From positions 105,834,001 to 105,898,000 of the forward strand of contig NC_090330.1 in assembly GCF_035084215.1 (NCBI RefSeq): 64,000 bases of DNA. The letters run 5' to 3'. Origin of the DNA: Heptranchias perlo (Eukaryota). A model generated the notes under the pieces. It had not been told where the DNA came from. It made no database searches and saw only the letters and a program-made list of their open reading frames with translations. The position numbers and the translations under genes are program-made. Shown here piece by piece: positions 20,021 to 58,106 of the stretch; the first letter of the stretch is position 1, and each line of letters begins with the position of its first letter.

Positions 20021-22638
20021 AAAGATAAGCTAATTGCAGCCACGAATTCAGGGGAGAATTGATAAAATGTAGAGATCAGATTGTTTTTAAACTTTCCAGC
20101 AGTTAAATGTGGGGTTTGACACAACTCTTTGTGCAGTCAAATCCAAAAGAGGTTCTGCAGCTTTATTGCTGATGTACCCTGCTGACCAAGACTCATTATA
20201 ACCAACGAGAGCTATCAGTCTCAATATGCTTTCTGTTGAAAGAATCTTCCAATCCTTACATTTTTCTGTCTTCCAATTGGTGAGATAGATTGAAAGTTCG
20301 ACTTCAACCATGGGTTCCCTTCTAATGTGTCACTTTATTATCAGGTGGATCTCACAACAACAACAACAATAACAACAACAACTCCCATTTATATAGCGCC
20401 TTTAACGTAGACACAGATACATTTTTTGGCTCAAGTCAATTATGAATGAAAATCAATGTGAGATTGTGCGAATTAGAACCAGAATGCTGCAAAGTGCATC
20501 CATGGATTCAGCAACGATGCCAGGGAGCGAAAAATTAATGTTCACATAATTTATTAACTGCAGAATTAGCAATGCTGTAATGTAAATGAAGGCAATTACT
20601 GGTAATTAGGACAGTTGTCAATTGTGCAAACTCTGCCTGATTTGTATTTTTCTGGTAATTAATTAATCCCAGATAATAACACAATAACATTGTCTATCAT
20701 TTTTCTGTGGTGATAATTCCCATGTGTTGGCTGGAGATCTAAATACGCGACCATATTGATCATCCAAATGATCATTTGCGCAGCGATAATTGGAAGATTT
20801 GCCCTTCATTATCTGAATGCTCTTTACTGGCACCTTTTCCTTTGCTTCATACTGTGCACCCGTCTGTGCTAAGTTTTCAAAATTGCCTCAAAAGAATAGA
20901 ACTGTTATAATCAGCAGTAATCCGTAGGAAGAAATCATTGTGCAAAATCCCGGCAGCTTTTCCCTTTGTTCAATAATGCACTTGTTGTGTTAAACGTGAT
21001 TAAAATTGCTGTACTTTTTTTTTGGTTTCGTTTCACATTTCAGAGTATAAAAGATACATGTGTCTTGTGACCTATCGATAGCTATGATATGCAGGGGGTG
21101 AATCGGGCAATTGCAAATTGCCAGCCCTCTTTACTCTTTGCCTGATTTCCGTTACCATTGACTAGGAATCAAGAGTGGGAACTGTGGCTGATTTTTCCCA
21201 TCCCCAGCTCAGGATGTTGAGGGTAATTACAGTGGCTGGCTGAGATCATATCAAATTCAGCACAGACCAAGAATAAACCTGGGACCGCCCTTAGCTTGTA
21301 TGGTTCAGTTACACAGTGAGCAGTACATTAACTAACTGAGCTGTTGGAGCAGCTTAACACACTCAACTGGCTTACAACACTTTTGTATGCATTGCATTCT
21401 GTTCCTCAGACTTGCATTTCTATCAGCTGAAAATAAAATAGGTTTTTGTTGCAGAACTTACACCGCAGGTCTGTCAGGATCTGAAGATAAACAACAGATT
21501 AATGACTCGGTTGTAGATCCTTTGTCAGAGTTGGAAGCTGGAAGATAAGCAAGCTCATTAATAGGAATAAACAAAAAGCAAGCTTCAGGATCATATCTCG
21601 TTTTTCTCCAGACACTCTGTGTATTTTATGGGCTGTAAAGCGCTTTGGAACACCTTGACGTCGTGAAAGGCACTATATAAATGCAAGATTTTTCTTTCTT
21701 AATTGATAGAATTCTCAGCTTTTATTTCATATTTTTGCAGCTATTGCTTGCAGTCCACCTGGGCTGGCAACAAAAGTATACAACACGAGGCAGTGAGGAG
21801 AAAATATACCAGTGCGTCTGATAGGAGAAGCAGTTAATACATGATTAATAGTTAGCACTGCATGCGGAAATCTGGTCCTAGCTCATGAACGTGGCATCTT
21901 TATCTGCACAAAAAAAGCTGCCTGTTGGAGTGCTATAGGAGCCCCATTAAGCTGCTGAGTGCAATGGTCTTGTGTAATGCCATGAACTGTACCCGTCTGA
22001 GCCTGAAGTGGGAATTAGTTTCTGAAAGGAATATTCATCCACAAGGAGAGCAGCCATTAATTTTGGATGAACTCAGAAATTGAGCAAGCTTCGTGGGGGC
22101 TTTAATTAGAAACGCTAAGATGGTTTCCTCTGGATGCTCAATGAGACATGCATATGGTTTAAATGTGTTAATCCTGCAACTGAACAAATGCATTAAATCA
22201 TCCTTTACTCAGACACAGGGAATAAGAGGACATTTTGTAACATGTTCCCAATGCAGTTGTATTAATAGTCAAGTAACTATAAAGAATGATGCTCTCATTT
22301 CATTCAGTTACATACTGAATGAAACGTGCCTGTCAAGACCTTAGGGGTTTGTAGTTACCAGTGTCCCTGCTGGGAATTTTCAAAGTCGAGTTCAATCATT
22401 TAAAGGGACAGTGTTACAAAATGAGGGGTGCAAGTTCCTATCATGACCAAAATCAACTTGCTCTGCAAACGTAGCAACACGCACTACTGCGGCAAGTTTA
22501 TGTTGCAACACAGATTGTGTTTGCTGTAACGGAAACGTTTCCAGTGTAGTTTTATTATTATTTTCTCAATTTTTGTATTCATTAGGACTGCCAAGGAAGG
22601 GAACTTTCTTTCCACTTTGCAACCAGTGTCAGCACTGT

Positions 22639-22966
22639 CCTTGAGAAGGTGATGGCGGGCCACCTTCTTGAACTGCGTGAAGCAGTTTGATACAACTGAG
22701 TGGTTTGCTCGGGCCGTTAAGTGTCAACCATGTTGGCGTGGGACTGGAACCATACGTAGACATTCGTGAACCAGTTGGGTTTTAATGACAATCTGACAGC
22801 TTCATGTTCACTTTTACTGATACCGGCATTTTCTTTCCAGATTTTTTAAACTGAATTCAAGTGCTTAAACTGCCACGAAGGCGATTTGATCTCACATCCT
22901 CCAGATTATTAGTCCAGGCCTCTGTATTACTAGCCCAGTAACATAACCACTACACCGCTGTGCCCC
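22639..22966 (-). mobile_element. tRNA-headed SINE-like deletion derivative of the LINE at 51722-55183
   Basis: 5' part aligns to the LINE 5' UTR (tagtggttatgttactgggctagtaat...ccactcagttgta) and joins the LINE 3' end (ttcaagaaggtggcccgccatcaccttctc). Confidence 0.8.
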
Positions 22967-38690: not shown

Positions 38691-41600
38691 TGGCACAGAT
38701 GGTGCTGAAAAGATAACAGTGTGTGAACGACACACGCCATTATTAATGCGCCAAACAGCCAGCAACTTGTGGCGAGGAAGAGATACCCCGTGAATCGCGA
38801 ATCGCCACAAGTTGCTGGCCGATTTGCGCCACTCCACCGTTAGCTTCGTGAACACAGCATCTCGCCCTTCACCGTCTCCTGAGTTTCATGAAGTTGCTGC
38901 ATTTGCACATTAATTGCCCATTAAACTCACCACAGGAAGTTAAGTCTCGTAATTAATAAGCACAAGTACCCAATTAACGATGTGATAATTATTAATGACT
39001 GCCAATCAACTTCTCTTACCCAGAAAGTGAACAATTAACTAATTCCTTCAGGTTGTGAATTGTTCAAAGACATTTTAAAAAAGTCAACTTATAAATCTTT
39101 ACACTTTTTTCTTACTTTTCCTTTCTGTCTCTTTTTTTCTTTTTCTCTTCATCCAATCTTTCTTTTCCTCTCTTTATTTCTCTTTCTCATCGTTATCATA
39201 GTAGGTACCGCTGAAGAGGAGGCCATTCAGCCCATCGTGCCTGTGCCGGCTCTTTGAAAAACCTATCTAATTAGTCTCATTCCCCTGCTCTTTCCCCATA
39301 GCCCTGTAAAAGTTGCCCCTTCAAGTATTTGTCCAATTCCCTTTTGAAAGTTACTATTGAATCTGCTTCCACTACCCTTTCAGTTCATTACAACTCGCTG
39401 CATAAAAAAATGTTTTCTCATGTCGCCTCTGGCTCTTTTGCCGATCACCTTAAATCTGTGTCCTCTGGTTACCGACCCTTCTACCACTGGAAACAGTTTC
39501 TCCCTATTTACTGTGTCAAAACCGTTCATGATTTTGAACACCTCTATCAAATCTCCCCTTAACCTTCTCTGTTCTAAGGAGAACAATCCCAGCTTCTCCT
39601 GTCTCTCCACATAACTGAAGTCCCTCATCCCTGGCACCATTCTAGTAAACCCCTTTTACACTCTGTCTAAGGCCTTGACATCCTCCCTAAAGTGTGGTGC
39701 CCAGAATTGAACACAATACTCCAGCTGAAGCCTAACCAGTACTTTTTAAAGGTTTAGCATAACTTGCTTGCTTTTGTACTCTATGCCTCTAAATAAAGCC
39801 CAGGATCCCATGTGCTTTTTTAACAGCTTTCTCAACTTGTCCTGCCACCTTTAAAGATTTGTGTATGTGCAGCGCTAGGTCTCTCTGTTCCTGCACCCCC
39901 TTTAGCATTGTACCATTTAGTTTATATTGCCTCTCCTCATTCTTCCTACCAAATTGTATCACTTCATACTTCTCTGCGTTAAATTTCATCTGCCATGTAT
40001 CTGCCCATTTCATCAGTCTGTCCGTGTCCTCCTGAAGTCTGTTACTATCCTTCAAATTGCAAAAATTGGATAGCCAGGTGGTGAGGGATAGAATACTAGA
40101 GCCTAATCTTTAGTTGCTTCCAAGCCTTTATTCATAGAAATTCCCTTTGCACACACACCACACCCTAGATAAGCTCTCCTGTAAAAAGGGTATAAGCGAG
40201 TCCCCAATTGATAACCACCACCTGAATACAATTAACACTCATTGATTTAAATCATATTGTTTACTACATTTCCGAGTTTCATGTCATCTGCAAACTTTGA
40301 AATTATATTCTCTATACCCAAGTCCAGGTCATTAATATATATCAAAAAGAGCAGTGGTCCTAATACTGACCCCTGGGGAACACCACTGTATGCTTCCCTC
40401 CAGTCTGAAAAACAACTGTTCACCACTACTCTCTGCTTTCTGTCCCAAAGCCAATTTTGTATCCACACTGCCACTGTCCCATTAATCCCATGGGCTTTAA
40501 TTTTGCTAACAAGCCTGTTATGTGGTACTTTATCAAATGCGTTTTGAAACTCCATATACACAACATCAACAACACTACCCTCATCAACCCTCTCCATTAC
40601 TTCATCAAATAACTCAATCGAGTTAGTTAAACACGATTTTCCTTTAACAAATCTGTGCTGACGTTCATTTATTAGCCCGTACTTTTCCAAATGTCAATTT
40701 ATTGCGTTCCAGATTACTGTCTCTAAAAGTTTCCCCACCACCAACGTTAGGCTGACTGGCCTGCAATTGCCGGGTTTATCCCTCTCCCCTGTTTTGAACA
40801 GGAGTGTAACATTTGCAATCTTCCAGTCCTCTGGCACCATCCCCATATCTAAGGAGGATTGGAAGATTGTGGTCAGAGCCTCCGCAATTTCCACCGTTAC
40901 TTCCCTCAGTAACTGAGGATGCATCCCATCCGGACCGGGTGACTTTTTTACTTTGAGTACTGCCAATCTTTTAAGTACTTCCTCTTTATCTATTTTTATC
41001 CTATCCAATATTGCTACCAGCTCCTCCTTTACTGCTACAATGGCAGCATCCTCTTCGCCAGTGAAATATTTAGTGCCTCAGCCATGCCCGCTGCCTTTAC
41101 AAGAGGATTTCCTTTTTTGTCCCTAATCGACCCCAGGCTTCCTTTGATTACCCTTTTACTATTTATATGCTTATACAAAACTTTTGGGTTCCCTTTTATG
41201 TTAGCCACCAATCTATTCTCTCTCTTTGCCTCTCGTATTCCCACTTTTTAGATCTCCTCTGTACTTTTTGTATTCAGTCTGGTTCTCTACTGTATTATGA
41301 ACCTTACATTTATCATAAGCCTCCTTTTTCTGTTTCATTTCAATCTCTATATCTTTAGTCATCCAGGGAGCTCTAGATTTGGGTGTCCTTCCTTTTTCCC
41401 TCGTAGGGATGTGTCTACTCTGTACCTGAACCAACTCCTCCTTGAAGGCCTCCCATGGTTCAATTATTGTTTTGTCTACCAAGTTTTGATTCCAATCCAC
41501 CCGGGCAAGACCCCTTTTTAACTCACTGAAATTTGCCCTCCTTCAGTTCAGCACTTTTACATTTGATTGTTCTTTGTCCTTTTCCATAACTATTCTAAAT

Positions 41601-42622
41601 CTAATGATATTATGATCACTGTTCCCTAAATGCTCCCCCACTGAAACATGCTCCACCTGCCCCACTTCATTCCCCACAACAAGATCCATCACTGTTTCCT
41701 TCCTGGTTGGGCTGGAAACACACTGTTCAAGAAAGTTCTCTTGAACACATTTCAGGAATTCCTCCCCCTCTTTGCCCTTTATACTGTTACTATCTCAGTC
41801 TATATTGGGACAATTGAAGTCCCCCATTATCACTACTCTATTGTGCTTGCATCTTTCTGTAATTTGCCTGCAAATTTGCTCCTCTATCTCCTTCCCACTA
41901 TTTGGCGGCATATAGTAGAGTAATAGCTCCTCTATTGTTCCTTAATTTTAACCAAATAGATTTTGTCTTTGAGCCCTCAACTACATCATCCCTTTCCAGT
42001 GCTATAATAGTTTCTTTGATCAATACTGCCACCCACCCTCTTTTCTTTCCTTCCCTATCTTTCCTGAATATCTTGTAGCCAGGAATATTTAGTTCCCAAT
42101 CCTCCCTTTCTTTGAGCCAGGTCGTTGTTATTGCCATGACATCATAGTCTCACGTGGCAACTTGAGCCTGTAGCTCACCAACTTTATTTACCACACTACG
42201 TGCATTTACGCGCATGCACACCAATCTCATCTTGGACTGTCTCACGTTTGCCCCCTTGTCTGCTCCCTCCTATTTCTGAACTATTCTTTACTCTAGCGCT
42301 ACATGTCCCTCCCAGTCCTCTGTACACCTTGTTTCTCCTCTCTAATGTTTCATCCTGGTGCCCATCCCCCTTCTGTACCTGATTTGACTCTAATTCACCC
42401 TCCTTCTCAATCCTTCCTCTCTTTATTTCTCAATCCTTAAATCTCATCGGTTAAGGAGATACACTGTTGGTCCCGTTATTCACCAAGGTCCCAGCTGCCC
42501 TGTTTCCCTCACTGCGCCGTTATCAGCTCGGACTTCCAGCAACTTTGCGGGCAAAATTTTTTAAAATCTAAGTATGCATGAACAAGTCTAACTAATAGGG
42601 CACGCTGAGCAAAATCTGGGCC
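38691..42622 (+). mobile_element. Harbinger-type MITE (29129 family) split by a long CR1
   Basis: 38691-39188 and 42370-42622 align to the two halves of 29129-29902. Confidence 0.8.
39190..42370 (-). mobile_element. CR1 LINE covering almost all of ORF2 (APE endonuclease + RT), frameshifted
   Basis: Endonuclease GYKIFRKDREGKKRG; RT KSPGPDGMHP, AFDKVPH, GVPQGSVLGPLLFLIYINDL, KFADD; C-terminus RRLRGDLIEVF. Confidence 0.95.
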
Positions 42623-50704: not shown

Positions 50705-50960
50705 CTGTCAGCTGCAGCTCAGTTGGTGGCAGTCTTGCCTCTTGCACTCTCGCCTCTGAGTCAGAAGGTTGTGGCCTCAAGTCCCACTCCAGAGACCTGA
50801 GAGCACATAATCTAGGCTGACATTCCAGTGCAGTACTGAGGGAGTGCTGCATTGTCAGAGGTGCTGTCTTTCAGATGAGATGATAAACCGAGGCCCCGTC
50901 TGCCCTCTCAGGTGGACGTAAAAGATCCCATGGCAATATTTCAAAGAAGAGCATGGGAAT
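50705..50960 (+). mobile_element. Deu-domain tRNA SINE 5' part
   Basis: gcagctcagttggtggc head and Deu core caggtggacgtaaaagatcccatggc. Confidence 0.8.
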
Positions 50961-51729
50961 TATTTTTCTTCTTATTTGGAAAAATATGAGAACAGTTTCA
51001 TTGTTCCCAATATTTCTCAGTAAATTTTCACTTGAGGGTATATAGGGCAATAGGTGATGTGGTGGCAAGTGCATTGACATACTTCTGTGTAATTGTAAAC
51101 CTTGTAAATAAATTTGACGACTACTTTCGGTTTGAAATATACAATCTAAAACAATGTTGCTGTCTATCTTTTGCAGATGACAGGAGTACATGGTGAGTAA
51201 CCTGAGCAACCTCGGGTGCAAAGTAACTTGGTAAAAGGGCAATTTTCAATTCTGCAGCATGCTACTGAATAAAGGGGGTGTGGATCTGCTGATGGAAAAT
51301 GCTTTTTACTGTGAACATGGATAAAGGGAGTTGGGAGGTGGCCTGAATTCTATCAGCTCTGTTCTTTCCCATCTAGCAAAGTTCTTGGTCTCACAATCTC
51401 TTCTGATCTCAAGAGGACTCCCACATCTCCATTGCTAACGCTGCTTCCAAAAAGCTTGATATCCTTTTTCATGCCAGATACTTTTTTTCTGCTCAATAAC
51501 TCTTAATTCTCTTTAAAGCCCAAGTCTGTGTAAGATTGAATATTGTTTCTATACCTGGGGAGACACTTTTAGCATCTCTTTGACATGCCTGGAAAAGATG
51601 CAAGAAAAAGCTTTGAGGTTATAGCTCACTTCTGACCTCCAACCTTTCTTGTCTTTGTTTAATTGATAGTACTATAGTTAGTATCCTCGGAGCATTCCTT
51701 ACTTCCTTGTAAGTGTTCTTAGGGTACGG

Positions 51730-51803
51730 TAGCATAGTGGTTATGTTACTGGGCTAGTAATCCAGAGGCCTGGACTAAAATCCAGAGTCATGAGTTCAAA
51801 TCC
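51730..51803 (+). promoter_or_regulatory. Pol III type 2 internal promoter (A box and B box)
   Basis: A box TAGCATAGTGG 51730-51740 fits TRGCNNARYGG; B box AGTTCAAATCC 51793-51803 approximates GGTTCGANTCC. Confidence 0.7.
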
Positions 51804-52046
51804 CGCCACGGCAGCTGGCGAATTTAAATTCAATTAATTAATTAAAAATTCAATTAATTAAATAAAAATCTGGAATTAAAATACTAGTATCAGTAATGAT
51901 GGCCATGAAACTACCGGATTGTCGTAAAAACCCATCTGGTTCACTAATGTCCTTTAGGGAAGGAAGCCTGCCGCCCTTACCCGGTCTGGCCTATATGTGA
52001 CTCCAGACCCACATCAATGTGGTTGATTCTTAATTGCCCTCTGAAA

Positions 52047-52168
52047 TAGAGTCATAGAGTTATAGAGTTATACAGCACGGATAGAGGCCATTCGGCCCAT
52101 CGTGTCCGCACCGGCCATCAGCCCTGTCTACTCTAATCCCATATTCCAGCATTTATAGAGTCATAGAG
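52047..52168 (-). mobile_element. Short CR1 3' tail inserted in the LINE leader
   Basis: atagagtc/atagagtt octamer repeats and gaggccattcggcccatcgtgtc; flanked by gaaat duplication. Confidence 0.7.
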
Positions 52169-52197
52169 AAATGGCCAAGCAAGCCACTCAGTTGTAA

Positions 52198-55119
52198 AAT
52201 CTCACTACGAAAAGTCATCATAAGAATAAAACCGGACGGACCACCCGGCATCGGACCACTAGGCACCGGACACGACAACGGCAAAACACCAAGCCCAGTC
52301 GACCCTGCAAGGTCCTCCTCACTAACATCTGGGGACTTGTGCCAAAATTGGGAGAGCTGTCCCACAGACTAGTCAAGCAACAGCCTGACATAGCCATACT
52401 CACAGAATCATATCTTTCAGCCAACGTCCCAGACTCTTCCATCACCATCCCTGGGTATGTCCTGTCCCACCGGCAGGACAGACCCACCAGAGGTGGCGGT
52501 ACAGTGATATACAGTCAGGAGGGAGTGGCCCTGGGAGTCCTCAACATTGACTCTGGACCCCATGAAATCTCATGGCATCAGGTCAAACATGGGAAAGGAA
52601 ACCTCCTGCTGATTACCACCTACCGTCCTCCCTCAGCTGATGAATCAGTCCTCCTCCATGTTGAACACCACTTGGAGGAAGCACTGAGGGTAGCAAGGGC
52701 ATAAAATGTACTCTGGGTGGGGGACTTCAATGTCCATCACCAAGAGTGGCTCGGTAGCACCACTACTGACCGAGCTGGCCGAGTCCTGAAGGACATAGCT
52801 GCTAGACTGGGCCTGCGGCAGGTGGTGAGCGAACCAACACGAGGGAAAAACTTACTTGACCTCGTCCTCACCAATCTACCCGTCGCAAATGCATCTGCCC
52901 ATGACAGTATTGGTAGGAGTGACCACCGCACAGTCCTCGTGGAGATGAAATCCCGTCTTCGCACTGAGGACACCATCCAACGTGTTGTGTGGCACTACCA
53001 CCGTGCTAAATGGGATAGATTCAGAACAGATCTAGCAGCTCAAAACTGGGCATCCATGAGGCGCTGTGGGCCATCAGCAGCAGCAGAATTGTATTCCAGC
53101 ACAATCTGTAACCTCATGGCCCGGCATATTCCTCACTCTACCATTACCAACAAGCCAGGGGATCAACCCTGGTTCAATGAGGAGTGTAGAAGAGCATGCC
53201 AGGAGCAGCACCAGGCGTACCTAAAAATGAGGTGCCAACCTGGTGAAGCTACAACTCAGGACTACATGCATGCTAAACAGCGGAAGCAACATGCTATAGA
53301 CAGAGCTAAGCGATTCCACAACCAACGGATCAGATCAAAGCTCTGCAGTCCTGCCACATCCAGTCGTGAATGGTGGTGGACAATTAAACAACTAACGGGA
53401 GGAGGAGGCTCTGCAAACATCCCCATTCTCAATGATGGCGGAGTCCAGCACGTGAGTGCAAAAGACAAGGCTGAAGCGTTTGCAACCATCTTCAGCCAGA
53501 AGTGCCGAGTGGATAATCCATCTCAGCCTCCTCCCGATATCCCCACCATCACGGAAGCCAGTCTTCGGCCAATTCGATTCACTCCACGTGATATCAAGAA
53601 ACGGCTGAGTGCACTGGATACAGCAAAGGCTATGGGCCCTGACAACATCCCAGCTGTAGTGCTGAAGACTTGTGCTCCAGAACTAGCTGCGCCTCTAGCC
53701 AAGCTGTTCCAGTACAGCTACAACACTGGCATCCACCCGACAATGTGGAAAATTGCCCAGGTATGTCCTGTCCACAAAAAGCAGGACAAATCCAATCCGG
53801 CCAATTACCGCCCCATCAGTCTACTCTCAATCATCAGCAAAGTGATGGAAGGTGTCGTCGACAGTGCTATCAAGCGGCACTTACTCACCAATAACCTGCT
53901 CACCGATGCTCAGTTTGGGTTCCGCCAGGACCACTCGGCTCCAGACCTCATTACAGCCTTGGTCCAAACATGGACAAAAGAGCTGAATTCCAGAGGTGAG
54001 GTGAGAGTGACTGCCCTTGACATCAAGGCAGCATTTGACCGAGTGTGGCACCAAGGAGCCCGAGTAAAATTGAAGTCAATGGGAATCAGGGGGAAAACTC
54101 TCCAGTGGCTGGAGTCATACCTAGCACAAAGGAAGATGGTAGTGGTTGTTGGAGGCCAATCATCTCAGCCCCAGGACATTGCTGCAGGAGTTCCTCAGGG
54201 CAGTGTCCTAGGCCCAACCATCTTCAACTGCTTCATCAATGACCTTCCCTCCATCATAAGGTCAGAAATGGGGATGTTCGCTGATGACTGCACAGAGTTC
54301 AGTTCCATTCGCAACCCCTCAGATAATGAAGCAGTCCGAGCCTGCATGCAGCAAGACCTGGACAACATCCAGGCTTGGGCTGATAAGTGGCAAGTAACAT
54401 TCGCGCCAGATAAGTGCCAGGCAATGACCATCTCCAACAAGAGAGAGTCTAACCACCTCCCCTTGACATTCAACGGCATTACCATCGCCGAATCCCCCAC
54501 CATCAACATCCTGGGGGTCACCATTGACCAGAAACTTAACTGGACCAGCCATATAAATACTGTGGCTACGAGAGCAGGTCAGAGGCTGGGTATTCTGCGG
54601 CGAGTGACTCACCTCCTGACTCCCCAAAGCCTTTCCACCATCTACAAGGCACAAGTCAGGAGTGTGATGGAATACTCTCCACTTGCCTGGATGAGTGCAG
54701 CTCCAACAACACTCAAGAAGCTCGACACCATCCAAGATAAAGCAGCCCGCTTGATTGGCACCCCATTCACCACCCTAAACATTCACTCCCTTCACCACCG
54801 GCGCACTGTGGCTGCAGTGTGCACCATCCACAGGATGCACTGCAGCAACTCGCCAAGGCTTCTTCGACAGCACCTCCCAAACCCGCGACCTCTACCACCT
54901 AGAAGGACAAGGGCAGCAGGCGCATGGGAACAACACCACCTGCACGTTCCCCTCCAAGTCACTCACCATCCCGACTTGGAAATATATCGCCGTTCCTTCA
55001 TTGTCGCTGGGTCAAAATCCTGGAACTCCCTTCCTAACAGCACTGTGGGAGAACCGTCACCACACGGACTGCAGCGGTTCAAGAAGGCGGCTCACCACCA
55101 CCTTCTCGAGGGCAATTAG
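52198..55119 (+). pseudogene. APE endonuclease-reverse transcriptase ORF with an in-frame stop at 52702-52704
   Basis: Continuous frame with LLTNIWGL, ILTES, YRPP, GDFN, LDL, SDH (APE) and KAMGPD, NYRPISLL, QFGFR, DIKAAFD, GVPQGSVLGP, FADD (RT). Confidence 0.92.
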
Positions 55120-55323
55120 GGATGGGCAATAAATGCCGGCCTTGCCAGCGACGCCCACATCCCGTGAACGAATAAAAAAAAAAGAAACTCAAAATTGTGG
55201 AACTTATGTCCTATGTCTCTCTCTCTTTTGTCCCTTTAACAATCTTCAGGATTTTAAAACCAACACTTGTTGTCACCTATTTTTTGATTTACCTTGTCTT
55301 TGTCTTTTTCCCCTTTCAACTTT

Positions 55324-55412: not shown

Positions 55413-58106
55413 TTTCAACTTTGGTGGTGTTCCCTTCAACTTGGGGAAATGATATATATTAGTAAATCTCATGATGTTGCTTTTTTCCTGTAACTATCTG
55501 CTCATCTCCCACTCTCTAATTATTTCTATTTCCTGCTCTTGGTCTTGTTTTACTGCTTGTCTTTCTTTCTTTCTGCCTCCCTTTTCTCTCTCTATCTTTT
55601 TTGACTTTCATTCTTTCTCTCAATCTCTCCTTCACCTCTTTCTACTTGATGTCTCCCAGTCTGTGTCATTCACATACTCGTTCTCTATCTTCCTGCATGT
55701 CTGCCACTCTCTCCTTTTCTTCTCACTTACAAAAGAGACTAGAACTGATTCATGACTTCAACCCTGAAATGATCTTGTCTCCATGGGTATGAAGCCATGG
55801 ATCTTCACTCAAACATCACTTTGGAAGAGCATGGGCACTGGAGAAACACTAGTCAGATGTATCACTATGTGTTGGTGATATTGTAAACATGGCAGGAAAA
55901 TTTACTATGTTAGTTATTTCTAGCAAAATCTTGAAAGTATTCTAAAAAAAAGGTTTATGGTATTGGTAAAGATAGAAATCACAGGAAATCTTCCTGCTAT
56001 GTTTACGTTGTTGATAGCACATAGTAACCGGAAGAGATCTTCTTGCCAGTAGATTGCTTTCAATCTTGGGCAGTACCCCTGAACTTGCATCCAACAGCTC
56101 TCACTGGTCTGTTTGTAAAGGCCTTCTTTTCGAACCTATTTATGATTTTGCGAGAGATAGCAAACAGACGGGGATCCTCACATATGCATTCACAATGTCG
56201 CTCTACACAGAATCCAGAGGCACTATTCCCCCAGTATTATCAGGGATGTTAGAAGATATGGGGTAGGTTCTATAAACTTGTCCTCTTGCTCTTGTCTTTC
56301 TGTTTGTCTGCTGGGAATATGAATGACCTCACTGGTGCCGTCAATGCCATTCTGTGGAATGACATGACAGTTCGGTGACAGAATTCCCAGTGGATTTTCC
56401 TGCCCCTGAGATGGAGTGCGTAGAAATGCCACTGTAGAGAAATCACTAACTTATAACACAGAACACAAACGAATTCCCTGTACTCTACAGGCAATAATGA
56501 ATACATTGGTGTTACTGTAATCAAGAGACCAGTTTGTCTTGACTGATTAAGTCAAATTTTGTTTTTATTACCATGGATTCTGGATTTTGGGGATCGCATT
56601 ATTTGATTCTATCTGTAGTCAGTAAAAACTGAATACCAGCACCCTTGAAGAGAACTCCAGTCACATAGAACTAGAAATTACTGTTGGTTAGTGTCAGTGG
56701 GAGAACATTTAGGGAACAGCGATCATAGTATCATAAGGTTTAGAATAGTTATGGAAAAGGACATGGACCACTCTAAAGTAAAAATACTCAATTGGACTCA
56801 ATACTCAACAGTTGTTTTTTGGACTGGGGGGAGGTGTACGGTGGTGTTCCCCAGGGATCGGTGCTGGGACCACTGCTTTTCTTGATATATATTAATGACT
56901 TGGACTTGGGTGTACAGGGCACAATTTTCAAATTTGCAGATGACACAAAACTTGGAAGTGTAGTGAACAATGAGGACGATAGTGATAGATCTCAAGTGGA
57001 TATAGACAGGCTGGTGGAATGGGCAGGCATGTGGCAGATTAAATTTAACGCAGAAAAGTACGAAGTGATATATTTTGGTAGGAAGAAAGAGGAGAGGCTG
57101 TATAAACTAGAGGGCACAATTCTAAAAGGGGTACAGGAACAGAGAGATCTGGGGGTATATGTGCACAAGTCGTTGATGGTGGCAGGACAGATTGAGAAAG
57201 TGGTTAAAAAAGCAGACGGGATCCTGGGCTTTATAAATAGAGGCATAGAGTACAAAAGCAAGGAAGTCATGATGAACCTTTATAAAACACTGTTACGACC
57301 ACAACTGGAGTATTGTGTCCAGTTCTGGGCACCGCACTTTAGGAAAGATGTGAAGGCCTTAGAGAGGGTGCAGAAAAGATTTACTAGAATGATTCCAGGG
57401 ATGAGGGACTTTAGTTACGTGGATAGACTGGAGAAGCTGGGGTTGTTCTCCTTGGAACAGAGAAGACTGAGAAGTGATTTGATAGAGGTATTCAAAATCA
57501 TGCAGGGTCTAGACAGAGTAGATCGAGAGAAACTGTTCCCATTGGCGGAAGGTCAAGAACCAGAAGACATAGGGCTCGATATTAGCACCCGCTATCGGGT
57601 GCGTTCCTGCCGGGGGGGGCTCCGAAAATCGGGGAATCCCGGAGCGGGTCAGGAGCCCGGCTCCAACCCGCCCACTTCCGGGTTCCCCACAGACGCGCTG
57701 ACGTGCGCGCGCAGCCCCCGCATGTGGGACTCCCGCAGGCAATTAAAGCCGGCGGGGTGCCACTTAAAAGTATTTTTTCTGGTATTTCAGGTCGTTAACA
57801 GACCTGATTAAGGAGATATTTTACATGGGGTGGGATTTTACAAACAGCTAGGACTGTTTCCCGTACTGGGGGAAACACTCCCAGTTCAAATGGACGTGTT
57901 GCAGCCATCAGCCTGTGGCAGCTGCAAAGGTCCATTTGACAGGTGGTGGAGGGGGGAGACCCTCACTCATTGCAGGAGGCCACTCTGTTACTTGGGACAA
58001 AGTTTGGCCTCCACCACCCTCCTCCCAGCAATCAAATTCACAAACTTGCACACTTACCCCGGGGTCCAGAGACGTGTACCTACCTTGCGGACCCCCTCAG
58101 ATGTAC

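Follow-up and report, generated by a model that had tools for sequence, protein, structure and literature searches.

Zenon is a family of non-long-terminal-repeat retrotransposons in the CR1 group, and its elasmobranch members are described, in the part of Stuart et al. 2026 (PMC13343379) used here, as lacking ORF1 and carrying a poly(A) tail. Short interspersed nuclear elements (SINEs) "cannot encode a protein", as an excerpt of PMC5786205 puts it, and in type 6 internal ribosome entry sites (IRESs) GCU or ACU often serves as the first codon, and the 6e class measures 142-154 nt, according to the relevant passages of PMC10516663. Here we describe an element at 51722-55183 of a 64,000-nt stretch of the Heptranchias perlo genome (GCF_035084215.1, contig NC_090330.1, positions 105,834,001 to 105,898,000; hereafter the window) which, judged from its sequence, is a decayed, non-functional copy of elasmobranch Zenon with one open reading frame (ORF). 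RNA polymerase III (Pol III) likely transcribes the Zenon element from A and B boxes that lie within it, and a structured leader may allow translation without an AUG; to this reading we assign a probability of about 0.58. Pol III is the best single account of a fixed SINE-type start, intact boxes, a T-specific avoidance of runs and an ORF without AUG.

The assignment to Zenon is based on an apurinic/apyrimidinic endonuclease (APE) and a reverse transcriptase (RT) in one ORF, the lack of ORF1, a poly(A) tail and a sequence match to published consensuses. The element of this family is 3.34 kb long, with a 351-nt leader lying directly 5' of the ORF. The nearest full-length proteins to the ORF product are 35-40% identical, the two named ones being from a moth and amphioxus, and local CR1 elements are 25-27% identical; the search returned no shark protein of full length, in keeping with an ORF that lacks an AUG. 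Several annotated shark gene models (P0002, P0011, P0018-P0020) contain spliced-in pieces of the Zenon ORF, probably through annotation errors.

The published consensuses (supplement of PMC13343379) were compared by eye over their 5' 400 nt only. Within that span all seven elasmobranch Zenons, from five species (CarCar, HypSab, RhiTyp, ScyCan and SquAca), begin with the head and body found here and contain no TTTT, and all three head-less Zenons (two from hagfish, one from the coelacanth) have unrelated 5' ends and do contain TTTT. As head-less Zenons occur elsewhere, the head was likely captured in an elasmobranch ancestor.

The head contains an A box (TAGCATAGTGG, 51730-51740) and a B box (AGTTCAAATCC, 51793-51803), both of which match the type-2 Pol III promoter consensus. 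A first-pass annotation of the window had proposed a tRNA-like head with these boxes fused to an APE-RT ORF, and this observation is confirmed; the ORF of the window copy has Pfam matches to both domains (RT, PF00078, E 1e-37; APE endonuclease, PF14529, E 2e-9), with visible catalytic motifs. ARAGORN calls no tRNA gene at the head, and the Rfam tRNA match over 51730-51785 stays below threshold (score 18.7 bits, cut-off 29, E 0.46), both of which are expected of a SINE-type head. Overlooked at that stage were a premature in-frame TAA at 52702-52704 that splits the ORF of the window copy, a later insertion in the leader and the lack of an AUG ahead of the endonuclease. The insertion (52048-52167) is bounded by a 5-bp GAAAT duplication (52043-52047 and 52168-52172), matches other repeats of the window and is similar to printed CR1_CM tails. 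Given this stop and this insertion, the window copy is dead.

The tRNA-type head is the fixed 5' end of the family. Copies were collected with a 251-nt query across the ORF start, and 40 of 2221 genome candidates were scored, 39 besides the window copy, picked by likeness to the window copy without regard to the head. Most of these 39 are 97-99% identical across the ORF. Twenty-three of them begin at the same G and three within 6 nt of it, one has a head that has lost an internal part, and the remaining 12 are truncated at various positions. A second sample was taken via an RT query (20 of the 40 matches listed), in which nine of 20 reach nt 1-8 and none has an alternative 5' end; in both samples full-length copies share the head, as the first-pass proposal required. 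An older subfamily (73-88% identical) likewise has the leader joined to the ORF in six copies (L102, L103, L113, L118, L127 and L131). A second LINE (long interspersed nuclear element) family suspected from L118 turned out to be the same family and was reused as the RT-picked sample, and a search for further copies of the most diverged subfamily gave the young family again.

Assembled contigs from public runs of other organisms span the whole element (all 30 bins, four organisms) and many depart at its first base; such contigs are silent on strand, start site, level and expression. A leader motif had no exact match in metagenome contigs. A strict search found no target-site duplication of at least 5 nt in any of 24 full-length copies. 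In the 5' flanks (L031-L069), CC stands immediately before the first GGG in eight of 24 young copies (8/42 in a wider set), and in L046 the flank repeats the first bases of the element in inverted orientation.

On the sense strand of the family, runs of T are selectively scarce. The first-pass scan had reported no run of four T (T4) up to the poly(A), the first lying just outside the element, and frequent A runs; both reports hold, as 51722-55183 contains 0 TTTT, 8 TTT and 34 AAAA. The stretch to which it belongs (51571-55225) runs for 3655 nt without a T4, more than any other in the window; the second longest measures 1527 nt. Across the 40 copies, 126,847 nt contain nine T4, all private (three in the A tail, three in the linker that follows the B box, three in the ORF), vs 762 A4; no T4 is common to the copies, and the ORF has no four consecutive columns with a T majority. 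This amounts to 0.05 T4 per kb in the family, vs 3.73 and 3.47 per kb in two CR1 sets and 2.53 per kb in an L2-like set. The neighbouring CR1s at 40256-42224 (minus) and 56777-57810 (plus), which serve as decayed controls, do carry sense T4 at normal density, as had been noted for CR1s near the element. In older copies of the family T4 rises from 0.03 to 0.79 per kb, following the simulated decay of a T4-free ancestor.

Whether T4 absence exceeds what codon usage would give has a divided answer. For T4 alone it does not: when synonymous codons were permuted in three intact ORFs, about two T4 were expected (P 0.08-0.10). For runs of three or more T the depletion stands, with 5-6 seen vs 12-13 expected (P 0.001-0.003), and a neighbouring CR1 shows no T-run deficit in the permutation test. 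Recoding weighted by composition gives about four expected T4 (P ~0.01), and for the window copy the probability of zero T4 is 0.015 under base composition and 0.079 under a dinucleotide model. By itself the lack of T4 is thus of modest significance, and the depletion of runs of three or more T is the stronger signal. The use of T at synonymous sites drops with the length of the run it would create, from 0.30 to 0.21, 0.11 and 0/6 (P 0.001 for runs of at least 3), and A and G show no such drop; the control ORFs of this test are pieces that were pooled and are not independent of one another, and CR1 pieces may be present in the L2-like set. T runs also lengthen after insertion at boundaries of T and A runs, in A tails and the linker (L033, L038, L055, L059, L061 and L069), a hotspot that makes most new T4.

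The ORF is open in nine of the 39 other copies, at 973 codons in eight and 970 in one. Its first Met is at codon 250 (246 or 247 in copies with codon deletions), 3' of the whole endonuclease. The endonuclease encoded ahead of this Met is under purifying selection: for shared changes in codons 39-250, pN/pS is 0.20-0.34 when subfamilies are compared and 0.20 among members of the young family. The leader contains nine ATGs and an in-frame TAA two codons before a conserved GCT, which makes ordinary scanning unlikely. The frame from GCT into the ORF is kept in seven of eight ORF-bearing copies of the older subfamily and, by eye in the published 5' ends, in the first consensuses of four of five species, with a spacing of 27 or 30 nt; the spacer ahead of GCT is variable.

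A hairpin lies just upstream of this GCT, and its 7-nt loop presents an AGC complementary to GCT. The loop AGC is kept in all copies of both sets inspected (40/40 and 19/19), and among the 19 copies not picked by this junction the candidate first codon is GCT in 16 and ACT in one. The hairpin and the in-frame GCT are the best candidate for a cap-independent start, acting as pseudoknot I does in the dicistrovirus intergenic region (IGR) IRES, a proposal by analogy that we hold tentatively and at somewhat less than even odds. The first 399 nt of an uninterrupted copy (L067) are predicted to fold at -115 kcal/mol (z -4.2), a stability equalled by none of 100 shuffles. A hand model of the leader, set against the nested PKII/PKIII domain of type 6 IRESs, reaches 93% pairing, and one of its pairs changes in a compensatory way from one subfamily to another; the covariation alignment comprises 42 of 80 copies from this one genome, its signal is dominated by neutral decay, and its "old" rows were chosen with a pattern holding GCT and the 3' arm of the hairpin, so that conservation there is circular. 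Nucleotide 331 of the element (52177 in the window), in the hairpin loop, is T in 21, A in 11, G in six and C in two of 40 copies, its neighbours being invariant. Variants are mosaic across copies, which suggests recombination or many masters.

With Pol III as the polymerase, TFIIIC and Pol III would start at the first G and read through 3.3 kb because T4 has been purged, stopping at the first flanking T run. The RNA would be uncapped and, with nine upstream AUGs, would require cap-independent initiation, with the AGC-loop hairpin pairing with the in-frame GCT to set the start. The protein would then copy the RNA from its A tail by target-primed reverse transcription, which is standard for the group.

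Several observations count against such a scheme. The predicted fold buries the head in a long stem and forms no cloverleaf, and RNAalifold gives a different fold from the hand model, an AGGG:CCCU helix being common to both. The loop-GCT helix has no pair changed on both sides, and in nine of 42 rows one of its pairs is disrupted. In a sub-lineage to which the window copy belongs (13 of the 40 copies chosen by likeness to it), ACT replaces GCT with no compensating change, and by eye the GCT of the published SquAca_Zenon-1 is 1 nt out of frame. Rfam returned no IRES match for the leader, and no ribozyme match either. The absence of T4, taken alone, reaches only P 0.08-0.11 by codon permutation or shuffle and P 0.68 under a trinucleotide model, which already contains the scarcity of TTT; C runs are mildly avoided too (P 0.02), and the controls have another base composition and do not include the closest Zenons that lack the head. 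The leader alone is not significant (P 0.26), nor is its AT-rich linker, which had been tried as separate proof of T4 avoidance and was dropped (P 0.49). The linker immediately 3' of the B box holds runs of four or more T in many older copies; this may be a slippage hotspot, the alternative being an older master with T4 there. Lastly, the AATAAA fused to the tail suits RNA polymerase II (Pol II) equally well.

The strongest alternative, which we regard as possible but distinctly less probable, is a Zenon transcribed by Pol II with a captured SINE as its 5' untranslated region (UTR). The boxes would be kept for structure, chromatin or SINE-like derivatives, T runs would be scarce as tracts rich in U are detrimental to elongation by Pol II, to processing of the 3' end or to reverse transcription, and translation would proceed by leaky scanning or by re-initiation after an upstream ORF, ATG-GCC-TAG, at 52171. 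AUG-independent re-initiation is known from L1 ORF2, and in the window family a good-context ATG lies just upstream in frame. Added to the AATAAA and A tail, and to a T4 null of only P ~0.09, is the established knowledge that LINEs generally are Pol II products (stated in the excerpt of PMC5786205). Such a history leaves unexplained why the avoidance is specific to T, graded by run length and absent from CR1, and why intact boxes and one fixed SINE-type start persist across sharks and rays. The nine leader ATGs also lie in the way of scanning, and in the published whale shark consensus, by eye, the upstream ATG is out of frame and GCT in frame.

Improbable, by our estimate, is host Pol II read-through with the RNA cut at the tRNA-like or stem-forming 5' end by an RNase P-like activity and translated cap-independently, with no part for Pol III. 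It would account for why the 5' end is exact, the AUG missing and the leader strongly folded, and by analogy R2 is processed from a co-transcript, there by a ribozyme (as given in the part of PMC3414825 consulted). T-run avoidance and the intact A and B boxes would be unexplained by processing, and neither the lack of a ribozyme match nor a predicted fold without a cloverleaf favours it. A chance SINE upstream of an ordinary 5'-truncated LINE, with T4 lacking by chance, draws on the weak significance of T4 absence in a single copy and is refuted by the shared head, as the identical junction and start recur in dozens of dispersed copies, in the older subfamily and in five other species, leaving it a negligible probability.

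SINE-sized forms of the element are common. A pattern joining the leader end to the tail gave 36 exact matches with many different junctions, vs none for the control, and in the 30 short forms retrieved the alignment is confined to leader and tail; the short forms keep the A and B boxes. In the older subfamily most of 32 matches are short forms. They look like internal deletions that have arisen many times. One old leader copy, a SINE-sized deletion derivative of the Zenon family, lies in the window itself (22636-22952, minus strand); its identity is 72%, and the tail is matched some 80 nt beyond it. The leader body was at first read as the Deu domain of SacSINE1, an idea rejected since the Deu alignment in the supplement of PMC7245038 is, by eye, unlike it; the leader body is unlike the Meta alignment as well. 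Elsewhere in the window, ~50720-50950 is a Deu-domain SINE (AmnSINE1/SacSINE1-like) that matches the printed Deu alignment. The features of the window copy are collected in Table 1.

Table 1. Features of the Zenon copy and its downstream flank, in window coordinates.
Feature	Position	Strand	Remark
tRNA-like head: A box, anticodon-like arm (~51749-51765), B box	51722-51806	+	5' end of the family is G51722
Predicted long 5' stem, head paired with sequence beyond the AT-rich linker (~51820-51886)	51727-51916	+	Fold prediction
Leader body, conserved, first part	51926-52047	+	Near-identical to published shark and ray Zenon 5' ends (by eye)
Secondary insertion, CR1-type 3' tail fragment splitting the leader	52048-52167	-	Missing from 39/39 other copies
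Anticodon-like hairpin (7-nt loop, AGC 52178-52180), in-frame TAA (52195-52197), candidate first codon (52204-52206)	52172-52206	+	Hypothetical pseudoknot mimicking codon and anticodon
Single APE-RT ORF, 973 codons stop to stop	52198-55119	+	First ATG 52945-52947 (codon 250)
Short 3' UTR, AATAAA (55128-55133, 55171-55176) and A10 tail	55120-55183	+	Identical tail closes SINE-sized deletion derivatives
First downstream T4, flanking DNA	55226-55229	+	Presumed first expected stop of a Pol III transcript from the window copy

The Zenon family has already been described. The main text of PMC13343379 contains no occurrence of tRNA, promoter or polymerase III, and neither the head nor the avoidance of T runs nor the lack of an AUG was found in it; its preprint, in the portion available, is silent on tRNA, on methionine and on a start codon. 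In the literature searched, subscription journals and Repbase entries being outside the search, no autonomous LINE was found described as carrying a tRNA head. Even with Pol II, therefore, a fixed SINE-type head and an AUG-less ORF across sharks and rays are a combination not found in that literature. If Pol III does transcribe the element, two working rules would be broken, the one that Pol III does not make autonomous LINEs and the other that elements of SINE type have no coding capacity, and a natural, long-lived Pol III mRNA with a possible non-viral tRNA-mimic IRES would be at hand. SINEs could then arise directly, through deletions in a LINE that already bears a head and not through the joining of a head to the tail of a LINE, a route that makes the origin of conserved SINE bodies testable. 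The furthest-reaching version, in which elasmobranch Zenon would be an autonomous SINE whose 3.3-kb uncapped mRNA is made by Pol III and translated through a cellular equivalent of the factor-independent dicistrovirus IRES, its deletions repeatedly yielding tRNA SINEs, strikes us as doubtful; the full Pol III and IRES reading, if true, would be categorically new.

Compared with known systems, the element is closest to the published elasmobranch Zenons, with which it shares a length of ~3.3 kb and a single APE-RT ORF, its leader being nearest by eye to that of SquAca_Zenon-1 over the 5' 400 nt. At the leader, the likeness to type 6c-6e dicistrovirus IGR IRESs (in the relevant passages of PMC10516663) is a predicted structure of ~150 nt ending in an anticodon-like hairpin, the loop of which could pair with GCU or ACU as first codon, with no AUG; unlike them it lacks an Rfam match, clear L1.1 motifs and covariation in the key helix, so the comparison is with how such an IRES works only. 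Lepidopteran Zenon, in the section of PMC6740152 concerned, also has a single ORF and spawns a short internally deleted element (SIDE), Persaeus, made of its 5' and 3' ends. Persaeus is described there as having no tRNA homology and no Pol III promoter, whereas the shark deletion products carry A and B boxes and resemble tRNA SINEs. SacSINE1 and the Deu-SINEs (from the part of PMC5499810 used) are likewise shark repeats with a tRNA head and a conserved body. SINE2 elements, including bipartite ones derived from RTE and Vingi (Kojima 2018, PMC5786205, in excerpt), have the same architecture of an A/B-box head, a conserved body and a LINE-type tail, with few T runs. Unlike in SINE2, the Zenon head sits on an autonomous coding element of 3.34 kb with a 973-codon ORF, and it is the SINE-like forms that look like deletions of it.

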